From positions 64,001 to 128,000 of the forward strand of contig CAVTHK010000003.1 in assembly GCA_963734495.1 (NCBI GenBank): a DNA stretch of 64,000 nucleotides, read 5' to 3'. The position numbers and the translations under genes were made by a program. The notes below the pieces were generated by a model. The model had not been told where the DNA came from. It did not search any database and worked only from the letters and a program-made list of their open reading frames with translations. This DNA is from an uncultured Spirochaetota bacterium (GTDB lineage: Bacteria; Spirochaetota; Spirochaetia; SZUA-6; CAVTHK01). Positions 8,100-25,445 of this stretch are shown piece after piece. Each line of letters opens with the position of its first letter. The stretch's first letter is position 1.

Positions 8100-9005
8100 T
8101 CACCCGGCGGGCTCCGGCGTCGCGGGCACGAGCAGCACCGGGCACGAGCAGGCCGCGCAGACGCGGCTGCCGACGCTCCCCGCCCAGAACGCGCCCGTTC
8201 CGGCCTTCCCGTGCGTCGCCATCACGACCAGGTCGCTGCGCAGGGAACGCGCGGACTTGAGGATGCGTCTCGCCGGGTCGCCCCGGAGGACGCGCGTCGC
8301 GGCCGCCAGGCCCGCGGCGTTCATTTCGGCCGCCCGCGCGGCCAGGTAATCGCGAGCCTGCGACTCCGACAGATCGAGCACCCGGGCCGCGGTGCCGGGC
8401 AGGAGGCGGCTCGCGGCCCAGCTGCCGCCGCGCAGCGAGCCGAACGTCGGGACAACGGTCAGCAGGTCCATCCTCGCGTCGAACGCCCGCGCCAGCTCGG
8501 CCGCCGAATCGAGAGCCGGCACGTGGGAGGGCTTGCCGTCGAGCGGCACCAGGATGGACCGGCACGCAAAGGGCCCCTTCCAGGCGGGCCGCACCATGAG
8601 CACGGGGACGCGGCCGAGCGCCAGCGACTTCTGCGCGAGGCTTCCGAACAGGGCCTCGCCCACGCCTCTTCGGCCGTGGACGCACATGACGAGCATGTCC
8701 GCGTTCAGCTCGCTGCCGTGCTCCGCGATCCCCCGCGCGACGTTCACCACCTGGCCCGTATCGACGTGGAACCTCACGGTCAGCCCCCCGGGAAAGCGCG
8801 AAGCCGCGAGGCCGGCCAGGTAGCGCTCGGCCGTCTCGGCTGTGTGCAGGTGAGGCTCGCCGTGGATGGTCCGGGGCGGCTCGCGCTCCAGCAGGTGGAG
8901 CAGCGTGACCGACGCCCCGAGCCGCGCCGCGATGGCCGAGGCGAGAGGGAGCGCCGCTTCGGCGGAGTGCGAACCGTCCAGCGGGACGATCAGGTGAGCT
9001 GTCAT
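8100..9005 (-). CDS. tandem-domain universal stress protein
   Basis: two USP repeats (IVPLDGS...MCVHGR...GSLAQK; LVPLDG...MATHG...GSV). Confidence 0.92.
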   Translation of the reverse strand: MTAHLIVPLDGSHSAEAALPLASAIAARLGASVTLLHLLEREPPRTIHGEPHLHTAETAERYLAGLAASRFPGGLTVRFHVDTGQVVNVARGIAEHGSELNADMLVMCVHGRRGVGEALFGSLAQKSLALGRVPVLMVRPAWKGPFACRSILVPLDGKPSHVPALDSAAELARAFDARMDLLTVVPTFGSLRGGSWAASRLLPGTAARVLDLSESQARDYLAARAAEMNAAGLAAATRVLRGDPARRILKSARSLRSDLVVMATHGKAGTGAFWAGSVGSRVCAACSCPVLLVPATPEPAG

Positions 9006-9010
9006 TCAGT

Positions 9011-10309
9011 CTACCTCCCGGTGATCAGCTGGACGAGCAGAAAGATGTTGAGCGCGATGATCACCGCGGCGACGATCGATGCGATCGCCGTGGTCAGGGG
9101 CCTGTTGCGCAGCGGGCCCATCAGGTCGCGGTTGCTGGTGAACACGACGAGCGGGACGACCGCGAACGGCAGGCCGAAGCTCAGGACGACCTGGCTGATG
9201 ACGAGCGTGCGCGTCGGGTCGAGGCCCGAGGCGATCACCGCGAGGGACGGAGCGACCGTCACGAGGCGGCGCAGCCAGATGGGGATGTGCCGGCGCAGGA
9301 ATCCCTGCATGATCACCTGGCCCGCGCTGGTGCCGACCGTGGACGAGCTCAGGCCGGAGGCCAGCAGCGAGACCGCGAAGATGGCGCTCGAGGCGCGGCC
9401 GAGCAGCGGTTCGAGCGTCTTGTGCGCCTCCTCGATCCCCGCGACGTTTGTCATCCCGCCGGCGTGGAACGTGGCGGCCGCCATCATCAGCATCGCGGCG
9501 TTCACGAGCCCGGCCACGCTCATGGCGATCACGACGTCGACCAGCTCGAAGCGGAAGAGGCGCCGCAGCTGCGGGGCGCCGCTCGTCTTGATGCGGTCCT
9601 GCATGAGCGCAGAGTGCAGGAAGATCGCGTGAGGCATGACGGTCGCGCCGAGGATCCCGGCGGCCAGGATGATGCTCTCGGTGCCGGCAAAGGCAGGCAC
9701 CACCGCGTGGTAGGCGACCTTGCCCCAGTCCGGCCGGTCGAGGATGGTCTCCACGAGATAGGAGAGCGCGATGATGCCCACCAGGACCGTGATCGCGATC
9801 TCCAGGGGCCGGAAGCCCCGGCTCTGCAGGCCCAGGATCAGGAACGTGACGATGGCGGTGAGCAGGCCTCCGAGCCACAGCGGGACGCCGAGCAGCAGGT
9901 TGAACCCGATGGCCGCGCCGAGGAACTCGGCGAGGTCCGTCGCCATGGCCACGGCCTCCATCAGCACCCACATGCCGATGACGACCGGCCGCGGGAAGCT
10001 GATGCGGCACTGCTCGGCGAGGTTCGTCCCGGTCGCGATGCCCAGCTTGGCCGACAGGGTCTGGAGCAGCATCGCCATCAGGTTGCTGGCGACGATGACC
10101 CACAGCAGCGTGTAGCCGAACTCGGAGCCGCCCTGGATGTTCGTGGCGAAGTTGCCGGGGTCGACGTAGGCGACGCTTGCGATAAAGGCTGGGCCGAGAA
10201 AGGGAAGAAGGCGGGCGAGGCCGCGGCGGCCTCCTCCTTCCAGCGCCTGGCGGGCCGCGCTCCTGGTCGCACTGTCAGCCTGGTCAGATGCTCGCTCGTC
10301 CACGGACAC
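9011..10309 (-). CDS. mntH: Nramp divalent metal (Mn2+) transporter
   Basis: YVDPGNFAT and ATVMPHAIFLHS signature motifs. Confidence 0.95.
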   Translation of the reverse strand: MSVDERASDQADSATRSAARQALEGGGRRGLARLLPFLGPAFIASVAYVDPGNFATNIQGGSEFGYTLLWVIVASNLMAMLLQTLSAKLGIATGTNLAEQCRISFPRPVVIGMWVLMEAVAMATDLAEFLGAAIGFNLLLGVPLWLGGLLTAIVTFLILGLQSRGFRPLEIAITVLVGIIALSYLVETILDRPDWGKVAYHAVVPAFAGTESIILAAGILGATVMPHAIFLHSALMQDRIKTSGAPQLRRLFRFELVDVVIAMSVAGLVNAAMLMMAAATFHAGGMTNVAGIEEAHKTLEPLLGRASSAIFAVSLLASGLSSSTVGTSAGQVIMQGFLRRHIPIWLRRLVTVAPSLAVIASGLDPTRTLVISQVVLSFGLPFAVVPLVVFTSNRDLMGPLRNRPLTTAIASIVAAVIIALNIFLLVQLITGR

Positions 10310-10354
10310 GATCCTGGACCCTCGCGGGCACTTCGATCAACGGGTCGGGCGCGG

Positions 10355-11419
10355 TCACTTCGCCCAGCACTGGAGCGGCTGCTGCCGCTTGAGGCACTCG
10401 TTGCAGGAGATGCAGGTCGAGGCCTGAGTCTCGCCCCGCTGCAGGCTGCGCACCAGGCCGGGCTCCCGGATCAACGGGCGGCAGAGCGAGACGAGATCGA
10501 CCCTGCCCGAGCCCACGGCCTCCCGCATCCGGCCGATGGAGCGCCAGCCGTTGACCGAGGCGACCGGGATGCCGAGCGCCGCCTTGAAGGCCTGAGCCTC
10601 CTCGAAGAAGAACCCTTCCTTGTCCGGCCCCGTCGGCCGGCGCATGTTCATCCCGGGCCGCATGCCGCCCGACACCTCGACCGCGTCGAGGCCGAGCGCC
10701 TCGGCCGCCTTTGCCGCCTCGATCGCGTCCGCGACCGCGAGCCCCGCGGGGACGCCGTCGTGCGCGGCGATCTTGAGCAGCAGCGGAAAGCCGCGGCCGA
10801 GGCGGCGCCGGATGCCGGCGACGACGGCCAGAAGCAGGCGGGCGCGGCCGCCGATGCTGCCTCCCCAGCCGTCGGTCCTGCGGTTGGTGAGCGGCGAGAG
10901 CGTCTGGTTCACGAAGTAGCCGTGCGCGCCGTGGATCTGCACGCCGTCCAGCCCCGCCTCGGCGGCGCGGCGGGCGGCCTCGACGTAGCCCTCGACGATC
11001 GCGGCCGCCTCCTCGTCGGTAAAGGCGCGGGCTTCGGGCACGTCCTCCCGCGGCGACGGGGCGAGCAGCGGCCCGCCGCGCAGCCCCTGTCTGACGTTGG
11101 CGCCTCCGAAGTTGATCTGCGCGACCAGCCGCGCCTCGCCGGCGCCGTGAACCGCCGAGGCAAGGCGCGCGAGCCCCGGGATCCTGTCGTCTTCGTCGAT
11201 TCCGAGCATCCCGGGGGAGCACTTGCCGTCGCGCCGCACGTAGGCGTGGCCCGTCACGATCAGCCCGGCGCCGCCGCGTCCGAGCGCGCCGTAGAGCTCC
11301 ACCTGCCGGTCCGTCACTCCGCCGCGTTCGTCGGCCGAGAAGTCGTGGGTCGCCGAGCGCATGACCCTGTTGGAGACGCGCAGCGTCCCGATCCGGATCT
11401 CGGAAAAGAGGTCAGTCAT
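10355..11419 (-). CDS. NADH:flavin oxidoreductase (Old Yellow Enzyme family)
   Basis: NRVMRSAT, DGVQIHGAHGY, SPLTNRRTDGWGGS, C-terminal CISCNEC. Confidence 0.92.
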   Translation of the reverse strand: MTDLFSEIRIGTLRVSNRVMRSATHDFSADERGGVTDRQVELYGALGRGGAGLIVTGHAYVRRDGKCSPGMLGIDEDDRIPGLARLASAVHGAGEARLVAQINFGGANVRQGLRGGPLLAPSPREDVPEARAFTDEEAAAIVEGYVEAARRAAEAGLDGVQIHGAHGYFVNQTLSPLTNRRTDGWGGSIGGRARLLLAVVAGIRRRLGRGFPLLLKIAAHDGVPAGLAVADAIEAAKAAEALGLDAVEVSGGMRPGMNMRRPTGPDKEGFFFEEAQAFKAALGIPVASVNGWRSIGRMREAVGSGRVDLVSLCRPLIREPGLVRSLQRGETQASTCISCNECLKRQQPLQCWAK

Positions 11420-16400: not shown

Positions 16401-17534
16401 GTGATCGGCAGGGTGTGGGCCGTGGCGCGGAAGGAGCTGCTTCAGTTGGGGCGTGACACGCGGTCGCTCGCGGTTCTTTTCTTCACGCCTGCCTTCCTTC
16501 TCGTGATGTTCGGCTATGCCGTGAGCCTCGACGTGAAGCACGTGCCCCTCGCGGTCGTCGACCTCGACCGGACGCCCGAGAGCCGGGCCTTCGTCAGGGC
16601 GTTCACCGCGACCGAATACTTCAGGGACTCCGGGGCCAGGCCGCAGGCCCCGCGCGAGGTGGACTCGCTGCTCGCTTCCGAGCGGGCGCGGCTGGCCATC
16701 GTGATCCCGCGGGGCTACGGCCGCGACGTGATCCGCGGCCAGCGGCGCGTCCGTGCAGGTGATCATAGACGCGGCCAACGCCTCGGCGGGCGCGGCCATG
16801 CTGGGCTACGTGGCCGGCATCTCCGAGGCGCAGGCGCTCGCGGCGGCGCCGGCCGGGGCCTCGCAGGCCGCCGCGGCCGGGCGGCCGCGCATCGAGCTGC
16901 GGCCCCGCATCTACTACAACCCGGAGCTTTCGAGCGCGGTTTACCTCGTGCCCGGCCTCGTGACGCTCATCATGATGATCACGGGCGTCGTCACGACCGC
17001 GCTCACCATCGTGCGCGAAAAGGAGCGGGGCACCATGGAGCAGGTCCTGGTGTCCCCCCTGAGGCCGGCGGAGCTCATCCTCGGAAAGACACTGCCCTAC
17101 ATGCTCGTCTCGCTGGTTTCCGCGGGCGCGGTGCTGACCGCGGGCGTGCTGCTGTTCCAGGTCCCCGTGCGGGGCAGCCTCCTCGGGCTGCTCCTGGTCA
17201 CGATCGTGTTCCTGGCCGCCTGCCTCGGGCTCGGGCTCCTGATCTCGAGCGTGGCGGCCACGCAGCAGGCCGCGTTCCTCATCTCGATCATCTCGACGCT
17301 GCTGCCGAGCTTCGTGCTGTCGGGCTTCGTCTTTCCGATCCGCAACATGCCGGTTCGCCGATCCGGCTGCTGACCTTCCTGATGCCGTCGCGCTACTACC
17401 TCGCGGCCATACGCGACATCCTGCTCAAGGGGGCGGGCGTCGCCGTGTGGTGGGACCAGGCGCTCGGGCTCGTGCTGTTCTCGGCCGCGGCCCTGGCCCT
17501 TTCGTCCGCGCTCATGCGCAGGAGGACCCTGTGA
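16401..17534 (+). CDS. ABC-2 type permease (frameshifts)
   Basis: KELLQLGRD, YNPEL, VREKERGTMEQ, LSGFVFPI. Confidence 0.88.
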   Translation: MIGRVWAVARKELLQLGRDTRSLAVLFFTPAFLLVMFGYAVSLDVKHVPLAVVDLDRTPESRAFVRAFTATEYFRDSGARPQAPREVDSLLASERARLAIVIPRGYGRDVIRGQRRVRAGDHRRGQRLGGRGHAGLRGRHLRGAGARGGAGRGLAGRRGRAAAHRAAAPHLLQPGAFERGLPRARPRDAHHDDHGRRHDRAHHRARKGAGHHGAGPGVPPEAGGAHPRKDTALHARLAGFRGRGADRGRAAVPGPRAGQPPRAAPGHDRVPGRLPRARAPDLERGGHAAGRVPHLDHLDAAAELRAVGLRLSDPQHAGSPIRLLTFLMPSRYYLAAIRDILLKGAGVAVWWDQALGLVLFSAAALALSSALMRRRTL

Positions 17535-18653
17535 GCGGCCTCGGGCGGATGATCGTCAAGGAGCTGCAGCAGATCCGCAGGGACCGCAGGTTCCTCGCGA
17601 TCCTCTTCGTCTCGCCCGTGATCCAGCTCATCCTGCTCGGCTACGCCGCCAACCTGGACGTGAGGCAGATCCCGACCGTGGTCTGCGACTTCGACCGGAC
17701 CGCGGAGAGCCGGGAGCTCGCCGCGGGCCTGACCGCGTCGGGGTTCTTCGAGGCGACGGGCTCGCGTCGCCACGCTCCGCGACGCGGAGCAGGTGCTGCG
17801 TTCCGGCCGCGCGTGGCTGGTCCTGGTCATCCCCAGCGGCTACGGCAGGGACATCGTCGCCTCGCGGGCGGCGACGGTGGAGCTGCTGGTCGACGGCAGC
17901 GACTCGAGCGCGGCCACGATCGGCTCGAGCTACGCCGCGCAGGCCGTCGCGTTCGCGAGCCGGAAGCTCTTGTCCGACGCGCCCGCAAGGCTCCCGGGCA
18001 TCGCCCCCGTCATCGAGGTGCAGCCGCGGATCTGGTACAACCCGGAGCTGCGCAGCTCGCATTTCATGGTTCCGGGCATGCTGGGCCTGCTGCTGATGCT
18101 CGTGACGATGGTCCTCACCGCCCTCGCCATCGTCAAGGAGAAGGAGGCCGGCACGATGGAGCAGCTCGCGGTCACGCCCATCCGGCCCGCGGCGCTGATC
18201 CTCGGCAAGCTCATCCCCTTCGTGATGATCGGGCTGATCGACGTGCTCCTGGTGGTCGCGGCGGCGACGATCGTGTTCGGCCTTCCCATCAAGGGGAGCC
18301 TCTTCCTCCTGCTCGCGCTGTCGCTGCTCTTCATCCTCACGTCGCTCGGGCTCGGCCTGTTCGTCTCGACCCTGGCCCACACCCAGCAGCAGGCCATGAT
18401 GATGGCAGTCTTCTTCGTGATGGTGCCCATGGTCTTCCTCTCCGGCTTCGTGTTCCCCATCGAGAACATGCCGCCTTCGATCCAGGCCGTCACGTACCTG
18501 ATGCCCCTGCGCTACTACTTCACGATCGTGCGGGGGCTCTTCCTCAAGGGGGTGGGGCCCGCGGAGCTCTGGGACGAGGCCGCCGCCCTCGCGGTCTCCG
18601 GCGCCGTGGTCTTCGGGCTGAGCGTGCTGCGCTTCCGCAAGCGCCTGCAGTAG
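17531..18653 (+). CDS. ABC-2 type permease (frameshift ~17770)
   Basis: KELQQIRRD, WYNPEL, KEKEAGTMEQL, LSGFVFPIENMP. Confidence 0.88.
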
Positions 18654-18681: not shown

Positions 18682-19287
18682 TCACGCCTCGATCCGGAGG
18701 ATCCGCCCCCAGCGCGAGCGCGGCCGCGAGGCGGTCCAGTCGAAGACTTCGCCGCGGCCGCTGCGGGTAAAGGAGCGGGCCAGCCGCTCGAAAGGGCTGC
18801 GGCCGGGATCGGCGATGAGCACCAGCCTGACGCCGGCCGCGAGAGCTTTGCGGATGACGCCGCGCAGCGTCGGCACGAGCGAATCCCAGAAGCAGATGTC
18901 CGACCCGATGAGCACGTCGGTCCGGGCGAGGTAGGCGGGAGCGAGCGAGGCGAACCCGACCTGCAGCTCCCGGATGCGCACGCCGTTCGCGGATGCGTGC
19001 AGGCGCAGGAACTCGAAGACGTCGGGATCCTTGTCCACGGCGGTCACGCGGGCCCCGTACTTGCGCGCGCAGTAGATCCCGGTGAGGCCCCACCCGGCGC
19101 CGAGCTCGAGCAGACGGCGGCGGCGCGGCAGCGGCCGCCGGCTCAGGTAGTCGATGAGCAGCCAGCTCGAGGGCCAGTGCTTGTTGCCGTGGATGGAGGG
19201 CACCGCGGAGCGCTTGAGCTTGCGGACTTCGGGATGGGTGGAGAGGAGGGCGCGCACCCCGTAGGCGCGGATCATCGTCCTGGGCAT
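18682..19287 (-). CDS. class I SAM-dependent methyltransferase (lysine-MT-like family)
   Basis: HWPSS, LLELGAGWGL motif I, LIGSDICF, IADPGR. Confidence 0.85.
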   Translation of the reverse strand: MPRTMIRAYGVRALLSTHPEVRKLKRSAVPSIHGNKHWPSSWLLIDYLSRRPLPRRRRLLELGAGWGLTGIYCARKYGARVTAVDKDPDVFEFLRLHASANGVRIRELQVGFASLAPAYLARTDVLIGSDICFWDSLVPTLRGVIRKALAAGVRLVLIADPGRSPFERLARSFTRSGRGEVFDWTASRPRSRWGRILRIEA

Positions 19288-19382
19288 ACGCGCACGATAG
19301 CGGCGCGGCGGGACGCTGGCAACAGGCGCGTGCCGGACCCGCGCCTTGCGGCCGCGCTCCCGCGCGCTGTAGTCTTTCCCGC

Positions 19383-20454
19383 GTGTTCGCGCTCAAGCCG
19401 GACTACGAGCAGGTGCTCGGCCGCTTCTCCGCCTGGTGGGAAGGGGCGGTGCTCGACCGCGCCGTCGCCTCCGTCAGCTATCCGAAGCCGCCGCGGGAGC
19501 GCGTCCCGCTGCCCGAGTCGCGGCATGCGAGCCTGCGCGACCGCTGGATGGACGCGGGCTACCAGGTCGCGCTGGCCGAGGCGACGTTCGCCAACACGGT
19601 GTTTGCCGGCGACGCCCTGCCCATCGTGCACCCCAACCTCGGGCCCGAGGTCTTTTCCGCCTTCTACGGCTGCCCGCTGGAATTCGGCGAGACCACGTCC
19701 TGGAGCCGGCCGCATCCTCGAGAGCTGGAGCGACGCCGCGTCGCTGCGGCTGGACGCGAGGAACGAGTACTTCCGCGCGATCCTCGAGATCACGGACGCC
19801 CTGATCGAAGCGGGCCGCGGCCGCTTTATCGTGGGGTACACCGACATCCACCCCGGCGGCGACGCCGTCGCGGCGTTCCGCGACCCGCAGCAGCTCTGCA
19901 TCGACCTGCTCGAGCAGCCGGGAGCCGTCCGCGACCTGGTCGAGCGCGTGACGGACGACTTCATTTTATTGTTCGACCTCTACCATGAGAGGCTCGCGGC
20001 CGCCGGAATGCCGAGCACGACCTGGCTGCACGCCGTCTCGCCCGGCAGGATGCACGTGCCGTCCAACGATTTCTCCTGCATGATCTCGCGCGCCGCCTTC
20101 GAAGAGATCTTCCTGCCGGGCCTGTTGCGCGAGTGCGGGCACATGACCCACAACATCTACCACCTGGACGGGCCCCAGGCGCTCCGTTTCCTCGACCTTC
20201 TTCTCGAGATCCGCGAGATCCACGCGATCCAGTGGGTGGCGGGCGCGAACAGGGACCGGTGGAGCGACTGGATCGACGTCTATCGCCGCATCCAGAGGGC
20301 GGGCCGCTCGTTCGTCGTGACGCTGCCGGCCGCCGATCTGGGCCTCGCCTTCGAGGTGCTGAGGCCCGAGGGCGCGTGGCTCTCGATCACAGGCGTGCGC
20401 GACGCCGCGGGTGCCGAGGCGGCGCTCGCCGCGGTGAGGCGCTGGAGCCTGTAG
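19383..20454 (+). CDS. URO-D/MtaA-like TIM-barrel protein (frameshift ~19710)
   Basis: PNLGP, TDIHPGGD, SNDFSCMIS, YHLDGP, IQWVAG motifs of URO-D-like proteins. Confidence 0.7.
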
Positions 20455-20491
20455 GCCGCGTCCCCGCCGACTCCGCGGGGCAATCCATGCA

Positions 20492-20516
20492 ATCCATGAC
20501 AGGCCCGCCGGTTTAG
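20492..20516 (+). promoter_or_regulatory. candidate ECF-sigma promoter, copy 1
   Basis: ATCC-N13-CGGTTTAG; the same architecture recurs at 21591-21615. Confidence 0.5.
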
Positions 20517-20542
20517 TAGCTTAGCAGGAGAGGAATGCCTCG

Positions 20543-21562
20543 ATGAGAACCGAACCTGCGACCGTCGTCGACCCGGGCTCGTCCGACGAAGCCTGCATGC
20601 GCGACCTGGCGCTCCGCAAGCGCGAAGCGCTCAAGCCGCTCTTTGCCCGCTACGCGCCCCTCGTGTTCCACATCGCGGCGCAGAGCCTCGGATCCGATGC
20701 GGCCGAGGACATCGTTCAGGACGTCTTCCTCTCCGTGTGGCGCAAGGCGGAGACCTTCGATCCGCGCCGGGGCGCTTTCCGCCCGTGGCTGCTGCAGATA
20801 GCGCACTACCGCGTCCTCAACGAGCTGCGATCGCGCAGGCGCAGGCCGCGCCTCGATCCCGCGGTCGACGGCGAGGCGCTCGACGAGATCCCGGGCGTCG
20901 ACGGCGAGCCGGTCGAGGCGGTGTGGCGCTCATACCGCAGCGAAGCGGTGCGCGCCGCCGTGGAGAAGCTGCCGCCGCAGCAGCGCCAGGCCCTGAGCCT
21001 CGCCTTCTTCGAGGAGCTCAGCCACGACCAGGTCGCGGCGGTCCTCAACCTCCCGCTGGGGACGGTCAAGTCCCGCATCAGGGCCGCCCTGCACAGGCTG
21101 CGATTCCGGCTCGCGCCGCTGAGCGCGGCGGTCCTCGCGCTGGCGGTGCTCGGAGGGGCGGGCGCGTGGCTCTTTGTGCAGCGCCCCGCGCAGCAGCGCG
21201 CGGGCCGGGCGCTCGCCATGGTGACGGCAAGCGACATCACGACGATCCACGTGCCGCCCGCGTCGGGCGCCCCGCCCGCGACCCATGGCTCCTACAGGGG
21301 CAGGCCCGGAACGCCGACGGCCGTTCTCGCGCTGCACAGCTTCGCAAAGGCTCCCGCCGGAAAGACCTACCAGGCGTGGGTCTCCAGCGGCGGCCTGTGG
21401 ACCTCGATGGGCACGGCGACGCCTGATGCCGAAGGGAACGCGGTGGTCGTGGCCGAGGGCGAGGCGTTCACGCAGCTGCCTCTTGTCGTCGAGGTCACGG
21501 TGGAGCCCAGAGGCGGCAGCGCGCAGCCGACGGGACCGGCCATCATCCTCTGGACTCGATGA
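20543..21562 (+). CDS. ECF sigma factor fused to a TM helix and RskA-like C-terminal domain
   Basis: sigma2 AEDIVQDVFLSVWR, sigma4 LPLGTVKSRIR, TM SAAVLALAVLGGAGAWLFV, RskA-like YQAW...VTVEPRGGSAQPTG; one continuous ORF. Confidence 0.85.
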   Translation: MRTEPATVVDPGSSDEACMRDLALRKREALKPLFARYAPLVFHIAAQSLGSDAAEDIVQDVFLSVWRKAETFDPRRGAFRPWLLQIAHYRVLNELRSRRRRPRLDPAVDGEALDEIPGVDGEPVEAVWRSYRSEAVRAAVEKLPPQQRQALSLAFFEELSHDQVAAVLNLPLGTVKSRIRAALHRLRFRLAPLSAAVLALAVLGGAGAWLFVQRPAQQRAGRALAMVTASDITTIHVPPASGAPPATHGSYRGRPGTPTAVLALHSFAKAPAGKTYQAWVSSGGLWTSMGTATPDAEGNAVVVAEGEAFTQLPLVVEVTVEPRGGSAQPTGPAIILWTR

Positions 21563-21590
21563 ACGCGCGGGACGCAGCGAACGTCCGGTG

Positions 21591-21615
21591 ATCCGATCGC
21601 GCGCTCGCGGTGTAG
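21591..21615 (+). promoter_or_regulatory. candidate ECF-sigma promoter, copy 2
   Basis: ATCC-N13-CGGTGTAG upstream of the cupredoxin gene. Confidence 0.5.
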
Positions 21616-21686
21616 ACGGTGGTGTAAGGCACGCCGGCTCGCACCGCAGTGGCAGACACAAAGAGCGCGGCGTGAGGAAGGACGCC

Positions 21687-22961
21687 ATGAGATTCCCAAG
21701 GAAGCTCTCCTTGAAGGTTTCGGCACGGATGGCAGGCCTCGCGTTCGGCCTGGTCCTCGCCGTTTTCGCGACTGCCGGCGCGAGCGCCGCCGGGCCCAAG
21801 GCGTACGTGGGCCTGTTCAAGGACAACGCCGTCGCCGTGATCGATACGGGCACCGACCGGCTGCTGAGCACCATCCCGATCCCGCCTGGTCCGCACGGCC
21901 TGGTGATGGCCCCCGACGGTTCCACCGTGTACGCGAGCAGCGACGGCGACTCCACGGTAAGCGTGATCGATACGGCGCGGGACGCCGTCACCTCCAGCAT
22001 CCAGGTCGGTCAGTCCCCACACGGCCTTGCGATCACCCCGGACGGCGGGACCGTGCTGGCCGCCGTGTTCGGCGCGAGCCAGGTGGTCTCCATAGACACG
22101 GCGACGCGGACGGTCTCCGGTTCGGTCGCCGTGGCCAGTCCCCACAACATCGCGATGAGCCCCGACGGCCGGACCGCTTACGTGGCCGCGCAGGGCAAGG
22201 GCGCCCTGGCGATCGTCGTCCTGGACGTCGCGACGCTGCGCCAGACGGGAATCGTGCCGCTGGACAAGACCCCCCGGGCCCTGAGCGTGAGCCCCGACGG
22301 AAGGGACCTCTACTTTACGCTCGCGGGCTCCGACGCCGTGCAGGTGCTCGACACCGCGACGAACGCGATCGTCCACCGCGTGCCCGTGGGCGCCTCGCCG
22401 CATCTCCCGCTCGCCGACGCGAGGGAGGTGCTCGTCGTGAGCCAGGGCCCCGGGACGCTGTCGCTCATCGACCCGGCGACCGAGAAGGTGAGCGGAATCG
22501 TGAAGGTCGGCACCCTCCCGCACTGGATCGCGCCGGCGCGCGGCGGCCACTCCGCATGGGTCACCGACGAAGGCTCCAACGACGTCTCGGTCGTGGATCT
22601 CGACTCGATGACCGTGGTTGCCACGATCCCGGTGGGCAACGCCCCCCGCAAGATCGTCGTGCAGCCGGGCGCGGCGGTGAGCTCGCTCGCCCCGCGGTCC
22701 GTGGTCGCGGTGCAGACGAGGATCTCGGGGTTCGCCTTTGACGACACGGTCGCCGTCACCGCCGGCGGCTCCGTCACCTGGACCAATGCGGACCCCGTGC
22801 CGCACACGGTCACGAGCGACACGGGGCTCTGGGCTTCGGGCGACATCGCCGCGGGGGCGCGCTTCTCGATGCGCTTCACTACCCCCGGCAGCTACGGCTA
22901 CCACTGCGAGAACCATCCCTCCATGCAGGGTACCGTGGTCGTGAATTCCGCGGCCTCATAG
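21687..22961 (+). CDS. exported YVTN beta-propeller protein with C-terminal plastocyanin-like cupredoxin domain
   Basis: signal peptide; repeats like VSVIDT...IQVGQSPHGLAITPDG; type-1 Cu ligands PHTVT and YHCENHPSM. Confidence 0.88.
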   Translation: MRFPRKLSLKVSARMAGLAFGLVLAVFATAGASAAGPKAYVGLFKDNAVAVIDTGTDRLLSTIPIPPGPHGLVMAPDGSTVYASSDGDSTVSVIDTARDAVTSSIQVGQSPHGLAITPDGGTVLAAVFGASQVVSIDTATRTVSGSVAVASPHNIAMSPDGRTAYVAAQGKGALAIVVLDVATLRQTGIVPLDKTPRALSVSPDGRDLYFTLAGSDAVQVLDTATNAIVHRVPVGASPHLPLADAREVLVVSQGPGTLSLIDPATEKVSGIVKVGTLPHWIAPARGGHSAWVTDEGSNDVSVVDLDSMTVVATIPVGNAPRKIVVQPGAAVSSLAPRSVVAVQTRISGFAFDDTVAVTAGGSVTWTNADPVPHTVTSDTGLWASGDIAAGARFSMRFTTPGSYGYHCENHPSMQGTVVVNSAAS

Positions 22962-23203
22962 TCGAAATTGAAGGAAGGCTCGCCGCCGGCGACGGCTGAT
23001 GATCGGCCGTCGTCGACGGCGGCGCCGCCTCGCAGCCGCACCCGCCGCATCTCCGCGCCGGGGCCGGCCGCACTGCGTCGTCCGACGCCGCTGCGGGCTG
23101 GGCACGCCGGCGAGGGCTCGCTACTCTTCCCGGTATGGGCACGACTTCCTGTCACGGAGCGGGAGACAGCCCCGACGCCTCCCGGCCTCTCGAGGGAGCA
23201 CGA

Positions 23204-23734
23204 ATGAACGCGCTGTTCTCCGCCGGCAGGTTCACGGTGCGGCCCGTCGCGAGCGGCGACGTGGCATCGACGCTGCAGGTGTACGAGCAGTGCGAAGACT
23301 TCCTGTCGCTCGGCCCTGTCCCGAAGGCCTCGCGCGCCATGGTCCTCGCCGACATCGAACACTCCGCGCAGGCAGGCGGCGTCTACTGCGGCATCTGGGA
23401 CGAAGCGGGGACGCAGATCGGAATCCTCGACTTCGTTCCGGAAGCGGGCGAACGAACCAGCTTCCTCTCGCTGCTGATGATCTCGGGGCCGCACAGGCGC
23501 AAAGGTCTTGGAAGCGCGGTGCTCGCCGCTCTCGAGTCCCATCTTGCGACGAGGTATGGGACGCTTGTGCTCGAATCCGGGGTGCAGGTCAGCAACGGAC
23601 CGGGCATCGCGTTCTGGGAGAAGCACGGCTTTCGGATAGACCGCGATCCCAGGCCGATGAGTGACGGAACGACGGCCTACGCGATGTCCAAAAGGGTCTC
23701 CGCGGGTTCGGTGCCTGCGTCGGCGCCGCCGTGA
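23204..23734 (+). CDS. GNAT family N-acetyltransferase
   Basis: HRRKGLGSA acetyl-CoA motif, AFWEKHGF. Confidence 0.85.
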   Translation: MNALFSAGRFTVRPVASGDVASTLQVYEQCEDFLSLGPVPKASRAMVLADIEHSAQAGGVYCGIWDEAGTQIGILDFVPEAGERTSFLSLLMISGPHRRKGLGSAVLAALESHLATRYGTLVLESGVQVSNGPGIAFWEKHGFRIDRDPRPMSDGTTAYAMSKRVSAGSVPASAPP

Positions 23735-23830
23735 ACGTGATTTCGTGGCCCAGGCCGGACAAGGAGGCCGGGCTGCGGCGGTTGACGCGGCGGGCGGGCG
23801 AATGATACGGCGTGACGCGGAGGAGGGCGC

Positions 23831-24205
23831 ATGGCAGCGGAAACGGAGTACTCGATCAACCTCGCTGAGAGGTTCGGTCCCCTCGAGCTCATCGACGCCG
23901 CGAAGCTGGCGGCCGAAGTGAAGGACGAATGGTTCAACCAGACCCTGTGCCGCGTCAACGATTGCGTCGTGCGCCTGGGAGTGTTCAAGAAGGGGGAGTT
24001 TCACTGGCACAAGCACGACAAGGAGGACGAGTTCTTCCTTGTCCTGCAGGGGACCTTCATCATTGATCTCGAGAAAGAGCGCGTCATCCTCGGACCTCAC
24101 CAGGGCTTCATGGTCCCGAGAGGCACGGTCCACAAGACGAGCGTCGCGGAGCCCGCCGTGGTCATCATGGTGGAGGCGGCCACGGTCAAGCCGACCGGGG
24201 ACTGA
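23831..24205 (+). CDS. cupin domain protein
   Basis: GEFHWHKHDKEDEFF and VPRGTVH cupin motifs. Confidence 0.9.
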   Translation: MAAETEYSINLAERFGPLELIDAAKLAAEVKDEWFNQTLCRVNDCVVRLGVFKKGEFHWHKHDKEDEFFLVLQGTFIIDLEKERVILGPHQGFMVPRGTVHKTSVAEPAVVIMVEAATVKPTGD

Positions 24206-24223
24206 CCGAGGAGGGCCGAGGCG

Positions 24224-24832
24224 ATGGACGACGAGAGCCTTCGCGTGATCCTCGTCGGCGGCACATCCCACACCGGGAAATCGACGCTGGCAGACGGGCT
24301 CGCGGGCCGGCTGGGCTGGGAGCACCTGTTCACCGACACCCTGAAGCGTCACCCTGGCAGGCCGTGGAAGACGCCGCAGCGCGAGGTGCCCGAACACGTC
24401 GCTGAGCACTACCTGTCGCTGCCGGTCGAAGAGCTGCTGGCGGACGTTCTCAGGCACTATGGGAGCCTTTGGCCCCGCATTCAGGACATCGTCTCGGCGC
24501 GCCTCGCCGACCGATCGCAGCCCGGCCTCGTGATCGAGGGCTCGGCGGTCTGGCCGGAGAGCGCGGCATCGCTGCCGTCGCGCCGCGTCGCCGCCGTCTG
24601 GCTCACGGCGGGCGACGGCTTCCTGCGGGAGCGAATCCGGGCATCGAGCGGATTCGCGGCCGCGTCGCCCCGCGAGCGGGCGATGATCACGAAGTTCGTG
24701 GAGCGAGCGATCGCTTTCAATTCCCGCATGATGGAAGCCGTGCGGCGGCTCGGGCTCGGCAGCCTGAACGTCGAGGGTCTTTCCCCGGTCGGTCTGTGCG
24801 CCGCGTGCCTCGAGCTCGTCGGATGTCGCTGA
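24224..24832 (+). CDS. P-loop kinase (2-phosphoglycerate kinase-like)
   Basis: GGTSHTGKST Walker A, VIEG. Confidence 0.75.
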   Translation: MDDESLRVILVGGTSHTGKSTLADGLAGRLGWEHLFTDTLKRHPGRPWKTPQREVPEHVAEHYLSLPVEELLADVLRHYGSLWPRIQDIVSARLADRSQPGLVIEGSAVWPESAASLPSRRVAAVWLTAGDGFLRERIRASSGFAAASPRERAMITKFVERAIAFNSRMMEAVRRLGLGSLNVEGLSPVGLCAACLELVGCR

Positions 24833-24841
24833 GCCGGCGAC

Positions 24842-25402
24842 CTACGCCGCCGGCTCGTAGCAGAGCAGCACGTTCCCGTTGGCGAAGGCCCGCGTCTTCG
24901 TCAGCTTGAGAGGCAGCCTTTTCGAGACGCCGTCGAACAGAAGCTTTCCCTGGCCGAGGACGACCGGGTAGACGACGATCTGGTATTCGTCGATCAGGCC
25001 TTCGCGGGCGAGCTGAGAGACGATGCTGCCGCTGCCCAGGATCGCCATCCCCCTTCCGTTCTCTTTCTTCATCCGGCGGACCTCCGCAGCCAGGTCGCTC
25101 TTGACCACCCGGGTGTTGCTCCATGTCGCCTCCCCGAGCGTCTTCGAGAACACGACCTTCGGCAGCGCGTTCATCCGTTCGGCGACCACGGGCTCGTTCC
25201 GCATCGCCATCGGCGTCGGCCAGTATTGGATCATCAGCTCGTACGTCTTGCGCCCGAACAGCAGCGTTCCCCCGCCGCTGGCGTTGCCCGCCACGAACGT
25301 GTTCCACTCGGGGTCGCTCCTGTGAGCCCAGCTCAAGTCGCCGTCCGCGCCGGCAAAGAAGCCGTCCAGCGTCACCATGCTGAAAGCAGACAGTCTCTGC
25401 AT
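24842..25402 (-). CDS. dihydrofolate reductase/RibD C-terminal family protein
   Basis: TLDGFF, LLFGRKTYE, ILGSGS, PVVLGQGKLLF. Confidence 0.9.
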   Translation of the reverse strand: MQRLSAFSMVTLDGFFAGADGDLSWAHRSDPEWNTFVAGNASGGGTLLFGRKTYELMIQYWPTPMAMRNEPVVAERMNALPKVVFSKTLGEATWSNTRVVKSDLAAEVRRMKKENGRGMAILGSGSIVSQLAREGLIDEYQIVVYPVVLGQGKLLFDGVSKRLPLKLTKTRAFANGNVLLCYEPAA

Positions 25403-25445
25403 GTCACTCCTCCTTGGTCCCCGATCGCGGGGCTCTGCCATGACA

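Follow-up and report, generated by a model that had tools for sequence, protein, structure and literature searches.

We analysed a 64,000-nucleotide stretch of DNA from an uncultured Spirochaetota bacterium (assembly GCA_963734495.1, contig CAVTHK010000003.1, positions 64,001 to 128,000 of the forward strand; referred to here as the window, with positions counted from its first letter), and consider in particular a gene at 20543–21562. It begins with an ATG, reads without interruption, and encodes a protein of 339 aa in which an extracytoplasmic function (ECF) sigma factor is fused through one transmembrane (TM) helix to an RskA-type ectodomain, in the order sigma2-sigma4-TM-RskA_C and without an anti-sigma domain (ASD). 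The original prediction, made from the letters of the window alone, had described this open reading frame (ORF) in the same terms and had proposed that it encodes a sigma factor held inactive at the membrane; the first of these claims is confirmed here, and the interpretation as a whole is partly supported. The features of the locus are collected in Table 1.

The N-terminal half of the protein belongs to the ECF superfamily, scoring 103.3 bits against the NCBIfam model TIGR02937 (cut-off 42.9), and is related to the sigma factor in PDB entry 4nqw (E 5e-14). Pfam matches show regions 2 and 4 and no other sigma-region family, with Sigma70_r2 (Table 1) and Sigma70_r4_2 at residues 134–185 (E 2e-15) each above its cut-off. 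The half falls under every subfamily and equivalog cut-off in NCBIfam, the best subfamily being PRK12519 with 144.4 bits against a required 222. Its description as 'SigK-like' in the original prediction survives only in part: the -35 region of the promoter motif described below resembles the ECF18 consensus, whereas the SigK model NF007228 gives 114.9 bits (E 3.5e-33) against a cut-off of 226, and the SigK-type cysteine pair is missing. That pair, C133/C183, forms a redox-sensitive disulfide in Mycobacterium tuberculosis (PMC7509140); the fused protein has a single cysteine, C18, and a 37-sequence family alignment contains no conserved cysteine column. In the same alignment G173, T174, K176, R178 and R180 of the sigma4 helix-turn-helix (HTH) are invariant, and with its strong region 2 and region 4 scores and a cognate-looking promoter the sigma factor looks functional, as far as can be judged from its sequence.

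Residues 194–212 are the sole 19-residue window in the protein with a Kyte-Doolittle hydropathy above 1.6, and coincide exactly with the TM helix originally placed at about 21122–21178; the helix contains Pro and Gly residues, and a stretch LGVAAVAL is found in the TM segment of many family members. RskA_C (PF10099) is matched at residues 195–332 with an E value of 3e-12 (47.4 bits, cut-off 29.4), and both of the sequences by which the RskA-type ectodomain had been recognized, YQAW at residues 276–279 and VTVEPRGGSAQPTG at residues 318–331, are present. The sigma core would be cytoplasmic and the RskA_C domain would lie outside. A full-length AlphaFold2 (AF2) model (mean predicted local distance difference test, pLDDT, 85.8; predicted template modelling score, pTM, 0.45) has a confident sigma2 (15–100), a disordered linker (103–121), sigma4 and a beta domain (233–338), with residues 172–227 forming one uninterrupted helix that unites the TM segment with the last helix of sigma4 and with a juxtamembrane helix.

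Table 1. Features at and near the gene for the fused sigma factor (positions in the window)
Feature	Position	Strand	Remarks
Tandem 9-nt duplication CAATCCATG x2	20481..20498	+	overlaps -35 element; read from sequence
Putative ECF-type promoter of sigma gene, ATCCA-N13-GGTTTA	20492..20515	+	ends 28 nt before ATG
Ribosome-binding site AGGAGAGGA	20526..20534	+	strong; precedes sigma gene; read from sequence
CDS, sigma2-sigma4-TM-RskA_C protein	20543..21562	+	ATG start, 339 aa, no interruption
Sigma-70 region 2, residues 33-101	20639..20845	+	Pfam PF04542 Sigma70_r2, E 9e-20; AF2 pLDDT >90
Sigma2-sigma4 linker, disordered, residues 103-121	20849..20905	+	AF2 pLDDT <50; length varies among 37 aligned sequences
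Sigma-70 region 4, residues 134-187	20942..21103	+	Pfam PF08281 and PF04545
Single TM helix, residues 194-212	21122..21178	+	hydropathy 2.03 over 19 residues; continuous with last sigma4 helix
Extracytoplasmic RskA_C domain, residues 216-339	21188..21559	+	Pfam PF10099; juxtamembrane helix and 8-strand beta-sandwich
Second motif copy, ATCCG-N13-GGTGTA	21591..21614	+	ends 73 nt before ATG of next gene (21687)
Likely target gene: exported YNCE-type beta-propeller with C-terminal cupredoxin domain	21687..22961	+	Pfam
GNAT acetyltransferase	23135-23734		downstream of target gene
Cupin_2 protein	23831-24205		downstream of target gene
Weak P-loop (AAA_18/33) protein	24224-24832		downstream of target gene
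Unannotated ORF	24842-25441	-	

The fused gene represents a real, conserved family and not an assembly artefact. A search over 5.8 billion proteins gave 1147 matches at E<=0.001, and Sigma70_r2, r4, r4_2 and RskA_C occur together in all of the best 120 listed (283–370 aa, 54–100% identity); the two parts are not always split among homologues. An exhaustive search of 1.84 billion cluster representatives (50% identity) gave 139 below 1e-30; among the best 150 listed, about 39 align from residue 28 or earlier to residue 324 or later at 37–55% identity, the others being fragments or sigma-only proteins. The end of sigma4 joins the hydrophobic segment without insertion in each of the 37 sequences aligned (mean column identity 47%), and all but one of these have one TM-grade window in the same place, 2–14 residues past the GTxKxRxR motif of the recognition helix. 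A locus scan with one genome per GTDB species and a 12-sequence alignment as query, limited to the best 80 of 499 confirmed relatives, contains at least 26 fused loci (L003–L028), full-length or cut by contig ends, all from metagenome-assembled genomes (MAGs) of at least eight phyla; their labels include Spirochaetota, Chloroflexota, Thermomicrobiales, Isosphaeraceae, Thermoanaerobaculia/Acidobacteriota, Binatia, Myxococcota/Polyangiaceae, Actinomycetota and others. Twenty-two of these loci are intact; the gene is spread over two frames in each of L007, L024 and L027, and a contig end truncates L026, and these four were excluded from the tree and from the ectodomain alignment. A protein language-model atlas provides, as leads only, same-size clusters of 58, 68 and 197 members, in which Chloroflexota, Acidobacteriota and Myxococcota are the commonest phyla, and also larger sigma plus RskA_C clusters, probably with an ASD retained, of 564 aa (Pseudomonadota) and 473 aa (Actinomycetota, RskA_N in 30%).

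The junction itself is bridged by independent metagenome contigs, one of which spans 21010–21384 (375 nt, 7 differences, 0 gaps) while another, from a run of a second study, spans 21055–21241 (187 nt, 22 differences, 0 gaps). The aligned metagenome contigs show no indel within 20543–21562, a check that was made at the contig level among 18 sequencing runs in which the share of sampled words was at most 0.18 each. Together with the conserved and monophyletic-looking family, these contigs bear out the earlier statement that a simple indel joining two genes does not account for the fusion. It is true that neighbouring genes in the window look frameshifted, that the gene is in two frames in three of the fused loci and in the relative G002, and that a same-genus genome (G001, 99% complete) has no match, all of which would be consistent with an assembly or frameshift error that ran a sigma gene and a truncated rskA together, or with a decaying, non-functional remnant. 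The uninterrupted architecture in all 120 listed homologues and 22 intact loci, the gap-free contigs of two other studies, the strong residue conservation throughout and the conserved promoter make this extremely improbable, and it is largely refuted already. The two overlapping frames seen in L007, L024, L027 and G002 (G002:C494:1601-2555) are pseudogenes or MAG assembly errors.

Both the absence of the cytoplasmic ASD that normally begins RskA and the absence of an adjacent anti-sigma gene, as originally claimed, hold for the domain types searched. Neither zf-HC2 (PF13490) nor RskA_N (PF22618) has a match at E<=0.01 in the 339-aa protein (Pfam), while the genome's own canonical RskA-like protein, used as a positive control, gives zf-HC2 at 8e-8. 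A six-frame search within ±6 kb found no ASD of the zinc-binding anti-sigma (ZAS) type, non-zinc class I and other classes not having been searched for, and the +1 position, at which SigK has its separate RskA-type anti-sigma gene, is taken by the beta-propeller/cupredoxin gene. An ASD profile built from 18 ZAS anti-sigma domains of +1 genes has 48 matches in the set of loci in which the sigma gene is split from its partner (L029–L082 without L054, plus L001), and two in the 26 fused loci and the window (±6 kb, six-frame), of which one adjoins the fused gene. The match in L017 follows closely on a second sigma-like ORF (8468–10405), some 3.3 kb downstream of the fused gene; we assign it to an ECF pair of its own. 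Across the whole genome, which is 83% complete, the ASD profile and Pfam zf-HC2 match solely a pair on contig C5, a canonical split arrangement in which a 213-aa ECF sigma factor is followed by a zf-HC2 (HLASCPLC)-TM-RskA_C protein; L030, from a Spirochaetia MAG, has the same split sigma / ZAS-TM-RskA_C form.

The fused and split forms are separated in a maximum-likelihood tree of the sigma core, which included 23 fused sequences (the 22 intact loci and the window) and 41 split ones (39 loci from the scan that had a sigma-only match, the canonical pair of the window's genome and the L030 pair). The fused cores all fall on one side of a branch (ultrafast bootstrap 99, Shimodaira–Hasegawa-like approximate likelihood ratio test 86), and the fused/split label needs a single change in 200 of 200 bootstrap trees. 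One origin is compatible with these data, although not proven, because the bootstrap is not fully settled and the root is arbitrary; the fused family is probably of single origin, to judge from these sequences. The nearest relatives of the window sequence are L003 and L004, both in Spirochaetota-labelled MAGs. A copy at E<=1e-30 is found in four of 40 relatives of the window's genome, all within one other genus (four of six genomes), three being full length at 60–62% identity and one in two frames, and G001, the sole other genome of the window's own genus, has no match. This patchy distribution suggests that the gene is accessory and moves horizontally.

A bipartite motif of fixed spacing, [A/C]ATCC[A/G]-N13-GG[T/C][G/T]TA, is common upstream of the fused genes. 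In the form ATCCR-N13-GGTKTA it has two matches in the 64-kb window, both on the + strand, where 0.01 are expected (0 of 100 shuffles reach two), and six in the whole genome, compared with none for a reversed-pattern control. Eighteen of the 26 fused loci contain the exact motif, in every case on the strand of the fused gene; L054, probably a fused copy truncated by a contig end, contains it too, and none of the remaining split loci of L029–L082 does. With the window included there are 22 occurrences in 19 of 27 fused loci, each shortly before the sigma gene or a neighbour gene. The genes so preceded are the sigma gene itself (nine loci), a metallophosphoesterase or cupredoxin-domain gene heading an operon whose last gene is the sigma gene, or a metallophosphoesterase–cupredoxin pair downstream of it. 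A calcineurin-like metallophosphoesterase is a neighbour in 14 of the 27 loci, a beta-propeller/cupredoxin or cupredoxin-only protein in 10 and a small Cupredoxin_1/COX2-like protein in six, with at least one of the three in 18. In the window, the second copy precedes a gene whose product matches YNCE (3e-16), Copper-bind (3.4e-9) and Cupredoxin_1 (2.7e-7) in Pfam, and no sigma-70-type promoter and no + strand terminator were found in 20300–23200. We read this pattern as positive autoregulation combined with a compact predicted regulon of exported redox or copper proteins, the fused sigma factor being the presumed reader of the motif. The -35 element resembles the ECF18 consensus (GCATCC / CGTAT, quoted from the ECF Hub; PMC13492112), and the -10 element matches CGGTGTA, that predicted for ECF204 (Suppl. 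Text S2, PMC7826278).

The other four matches in the genome lie upstream of the canonical C5 sigma gene, before a gene for an S-adenosylmethionine (SAM)-dependent methyltransferase, and at two places that look intragenic. The first of these has the form ATCCR-N13-GGTGTA and is at 341–364 of locus L001 (G000:C5:134934-138335), upstream of the sigma/ZAS-TM-RskA_C pair, so that cross-talk between this pair and the fused sigma factor through a common promoter is possible. The methyltransferase gene, in locus L083 (G000:C1:371554-374577), has the motif just upstream at 1501–1524 and may be a further member of the regulon. In L020 (750–5940, from a Myxococcota MAG) the fused gene is preceded by four small cupredoxin-related ORFs and a metallophosphoesterase gene, and the motif occurs there three times. 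The 9-nt duplication at the promoter of the window, CAATCCATG x2, yields two overlapping -35-like elements, and a related metagenome contig is without one copy (9 nt missing at 20480).

The reading that we favour, with somewhat more confidence than doubt and largely by analogy, is that this is a one-polypeptide sigma factor which would be inactive when tethered, would be freed by regulated intramembrane proteolysis, and would then transcribe from ATCCR-N13-GGTKTA promoters. The cytoplasmic ECF core (sigma2, flexible linker and sigma4) would lead through the single TM helix to an RskA_C beta-sandwich outside, the last sigma4 helix entering the TM helix with a near-zero linker. With sigma4 thus held flush against the membrane, we propose that the sigma factor cannot productively join RNA polymerase at a promoter, and that the tether itself would substitute for the missing ASD. 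An envelope signal sensed by, or acting on, the ectodomain would prompt trimming at site 1, followed by site-2 cleavage of the Pro/Gly-containing TM helix by a Peptidase_M50 protein, and the freed core would transcribe its own gene, as positive feedback, as well as genes for exported cupredoxin-domain, beta-propeller and metallophosphoesterase proteins. Both inhibition by tethering and proteolytic release are inferred from known systems: in Pseudomonas putida, IutY depends on Prc and RseP and its truncations are constitutively active (PMC5411451), and canonical RskA is cut by the site-2 protease Rip1, its signal and its site-1 protease being unknown (PMC7509140). Peptidase_M50 genes are present in the window's genome. 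It may also be speculated that a site-2 cut in the Ala-rich TM helix (e.g. in LGVAAVAL) would leave a ClpXP-type degron on the sigma factor and give a pulsed response, an idea drawn from the behaviour of RseA.

As to the nature of the signal, copper, redox state or periplasmic electron transfer can only be guessed at from the predicted regulon. The case for copper or redox, which the original prediction had raised, is circumstantial and comes from the cupredoxin neighbours sharing the promoter motif and from the fold of the ectodomain. Modelled alone from a 23-sequence alignment, the ectodomain gives one helix and eight strands (pLDDT 95.6, pTM 0.89). Foldseek against the PDB with this model returned nothing at E<=0.001 and a profile search of PDB sequences nothing meaningful (best E 0.031); the top nine rows of a Foldseek-independent fold search are Cu,Zn superoxide dismutases (SODs) and SOD-like proteins. 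The best match is 6flh_A (Z 9.4, root-mean-square deviation 2.8, 99 residues aligned), and M. tuberculosis SodC (Z 7.8), a Bacillus subtilis SOD-like protein (Z 7.3) and domain 2 of the copper chaperone CCS (Z 6.6–6.7) are also matched; the Cu,Zn-SOD Greek-key resemblance of the model may apply to RskA_C domains generally. The residues invariant among the 23 sequences include H248, Y276, W279, W286 and E321. A GT autocleavage motif like that of FoxR was considered and rejected, since G290 is conserved and the next Thr is not.

Several observations weigh against the favoured mechanism or against its copper or redox signal. The best SOD-like Z score of 9.4 is only modestly above the typical best Z of 7–8 reached by unrelated models, and the resemblance is on that account modest and no evidence of function; H248 is the only invariant His of the ectodomain, which has no conserved Cys or Met, and a classical copper site is therefore not evident. 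The presence of Peptidase_M50 genes says little because every control genome has them likewise, and no protease gene is conserved beside the fused gene among the neighbour clusters of the 27 loci. The motif may be read by the canonical C5 sigma factor as well as, or instead of, the fused one. The negative ASD result covers zinc-type domains in a genome that is 83% complete, non-zinc anti-sigma domains not having been searched for. Finally, in one of the 27 loci, L006 (1748–2149, from a Thermomicrobiales MAG), a 133-codon zf-HC2 ORF (E 2.7e-9) lies immediately upstream of the fused gene, its product having a 75-residue anti-sigma domain followed by a low-complexity Arg/Gly/Pro-rich tail and no TM helix, and given this example a trans-acting anti-sigma factor is conceivable in other loci too.

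Such a factor, be it a ZAS protein in soluble form or the C5 RskA-like protein acting through its ASD, might be what restrains the sigma factor, with the fusion to the membrane serving mainly to localize or destabilize it and not to inhibit. The ORF in L006 and the shared promoter motif of the C5 pair, with the cross-talk that it suggests, speak for this explanation, but we regard it as unlikely: an adjacent ASD ORF is confined to L006, the single ZAS protein of the window's genome adjoins its own sigma gene, and the fused sigma cores form a clade apart from the split ones.

Inhibition by the tether followed by release has also to be compared with schemes in which the sigma factor works at the membrane. 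It could be active while anchored, recruiting RNA polymerase to the membrane, with the ectodomain gating its activity, either allosterically by way of the continuous sigma4-TM helix or through oligomerization, in the manner of ToxR or CadC. The single rigid helix predicted for residues 172–227 would link the sigma4 recognition helix to the ectodomain, the likely regulon proteins appear from their N-terminal sequences to be exported, and the neighbourhood is without a conserved protease gene, all of which would suit an anchored, active protein; if this were so, transcription of exported proteins would be coupled to the membrane. The 2–14 residues between the sigma4 HTH motif and the TM helix, however, leave little room for a polymerase–DNA complex, membrane-bound regulators of the ToxR or CadC type have longer linkers, and IutY, the one studied analogue, requires cleavage, so that we hold activity in the anchored state to be distinctly unlikely. 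In a more specific form, which we consider very unlikely, the protein would never leave the membrane and an SOD-fold copper or redox ectodomain would switch the sigma factor through the rigid helix, with the polymerase at the membrane; this would amount to a membrane-resident sigma factor without anti-sigma factor or proteolysis, and to transcription of a cupredoxin/metallophosphoesterase regulon at the membrane.

The concept of a sigma factor with a membrane-bound extension is not new, IutY and other ECF extensions having preceded the family described here. Like IutY (ECF243), the fused protein has a cytosolic ECF sigma factor, a single TM helix and a periplasmic anti-sigma-type domain, without a cytosolic sigma-binding tail. 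Prc and RseP activate IutY by regulated intramembrane proteolysis, and the authors of that work describe it as 'unique' (PMC5411451); a 2022 review treats it as the only experimentally characterized case and predicts the same mechanism for ECF48/52/53 (PMC8999054). The differences are that the periplasmic part of IutY is FecR-like and acts in iron signalling together with a TonB-dependent receptor, whereas here the ectodomain is of the RskA_C type, the neighbours are cupredoxin, beta-propeller and metallophosphoesterase genes, the family extends over at least eight phyla, and cleavage is proposed by analogy only. No FecR-type ectodomain was found, and no receptor is present among the four neighbour clusters checked by Pfam, the rest being unannotated. 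To our knowledge, IutY is the sole experimental example of regulation by the tether alone.

The fused protein resembles SigK/RskA of M. tuberculosis (ECF19) and the ECF18 pairs in its PF10099 ectodomain, its related sigma factor and its CATCC-like -35 element, but SigK and RskA are two proteins, the latter with an N-terminal ASD that binds SigK, where here there is one protein and no ASD. The actinobacterial groups ECF48/52/53 also combine an ECF sigma factor with a membrane-spanning C-terminal extension for which proteolytic release has been proposed (PMC7826278, PMC8999054); their extensions have a ZAS domain between sigma4 and the TM helix and other ectodomains, e.g. carbohydrate-binding ones, whereas in the fused protein sigma4 abuts the TM helix and the C-terminal extension has no zf-HC2 match. 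In ECF204 an RskA-domain anti-sigma factor is 'in some cases' fused to the ECF sigma factor and the -10 element is again CGGTGTA, but the group is confined to Actinobacteria, has GGAACC at -35, and has anti-sigma factors that are described as separate and as containing an ASD (PMC7826278). No link between the actinobacterial split loci and ECF204 could be established, as GGAAC-N13-19-CGGTGTA occurs in only two of 91 loci, in each case on the minus strand and at a distance from the sigma gene. ECF206/207 share the calcineurin-like phosphoesterase and cupredoxin neighbourhood, but differ in having separate ZAS(+RskA-like) anti-sigma factors with an ASD, and in ECF207 the -35 element is GGAATAAA and the -10 element GTC (PMC7826278). 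TM-containing extensions without known domains are described for ECF57, ECF220 and ECF216 (PMC7826278). Among the passages of Suppl. Text S2 (PMC7826278) on RskA (all 31) and on C-terminal extensions (61 of 64), none describes a sigma4-TM-RskA_C group without an ASD, although Tables S1–S5 of that work, the ECF Hub or InterPro may list one, and it is by these text descriptions, and not by group hidden Markov model scores, that we set the family apart from the ECF 2.0 groups. A phrase search of the literature on membrane-tethered, -bound or -anchored sigma factors returned nothing on the topic, and PMC3420878 makes no mention of ECF26, cupredoxin or phosphoesterase.

What is new here is the bipartite ATCCR-N13-GGTKTA promoter motif with its small predicted regulon, which together with the conservation, likely horizontal spread and lack of an ASD characterizes a family with a cupredoxin-rich predicted regulon and probably one origin. 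A multi-phylum family in which a sigma core is wired to a sensor ectodomain by one TM helix would indicate that a tether alone can be a stable regulatory solution, and the sharp predicted promoter and small predicted regulon should allow ready testing and lend it appeal as a compact transmembrane switch made of one protein. The family may also provide a handle on what RskA_C senses, as what sets off the SigK/RskA cascade has yet to be identified (PMC7509140). The examples from the genome scan all come from uncultured bacteria, which may explain the absence of the family from the ECF group descriptions searched (PMC7826278).

Further from the sigma gene, none of the genes in 23135–25441 belongs to a neighbour cluster common to other fused loci. 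Upstream of it, the preceding gene (19383–20454) is split between frames, starting in the frame of 19383 and ending in that of 18997..20454, with no Pfam family in either part. None of the aligned metagenome contigs spans the presumed frameshifts near 17790 and 19700. A pair of neighbouring ABC-2 permease genes at 16401–18653 also looks frameshifted, through assembly indels or possibly as pseudogenes. The second of them opens in the 17447 frame and runs on in that of 17793–18653, with a match to ABC2_membrane_3 (2.5e-38) in the second part, while the first (16401–17534) has ABC-2-like ends and an Arg/Gly-rich middle.

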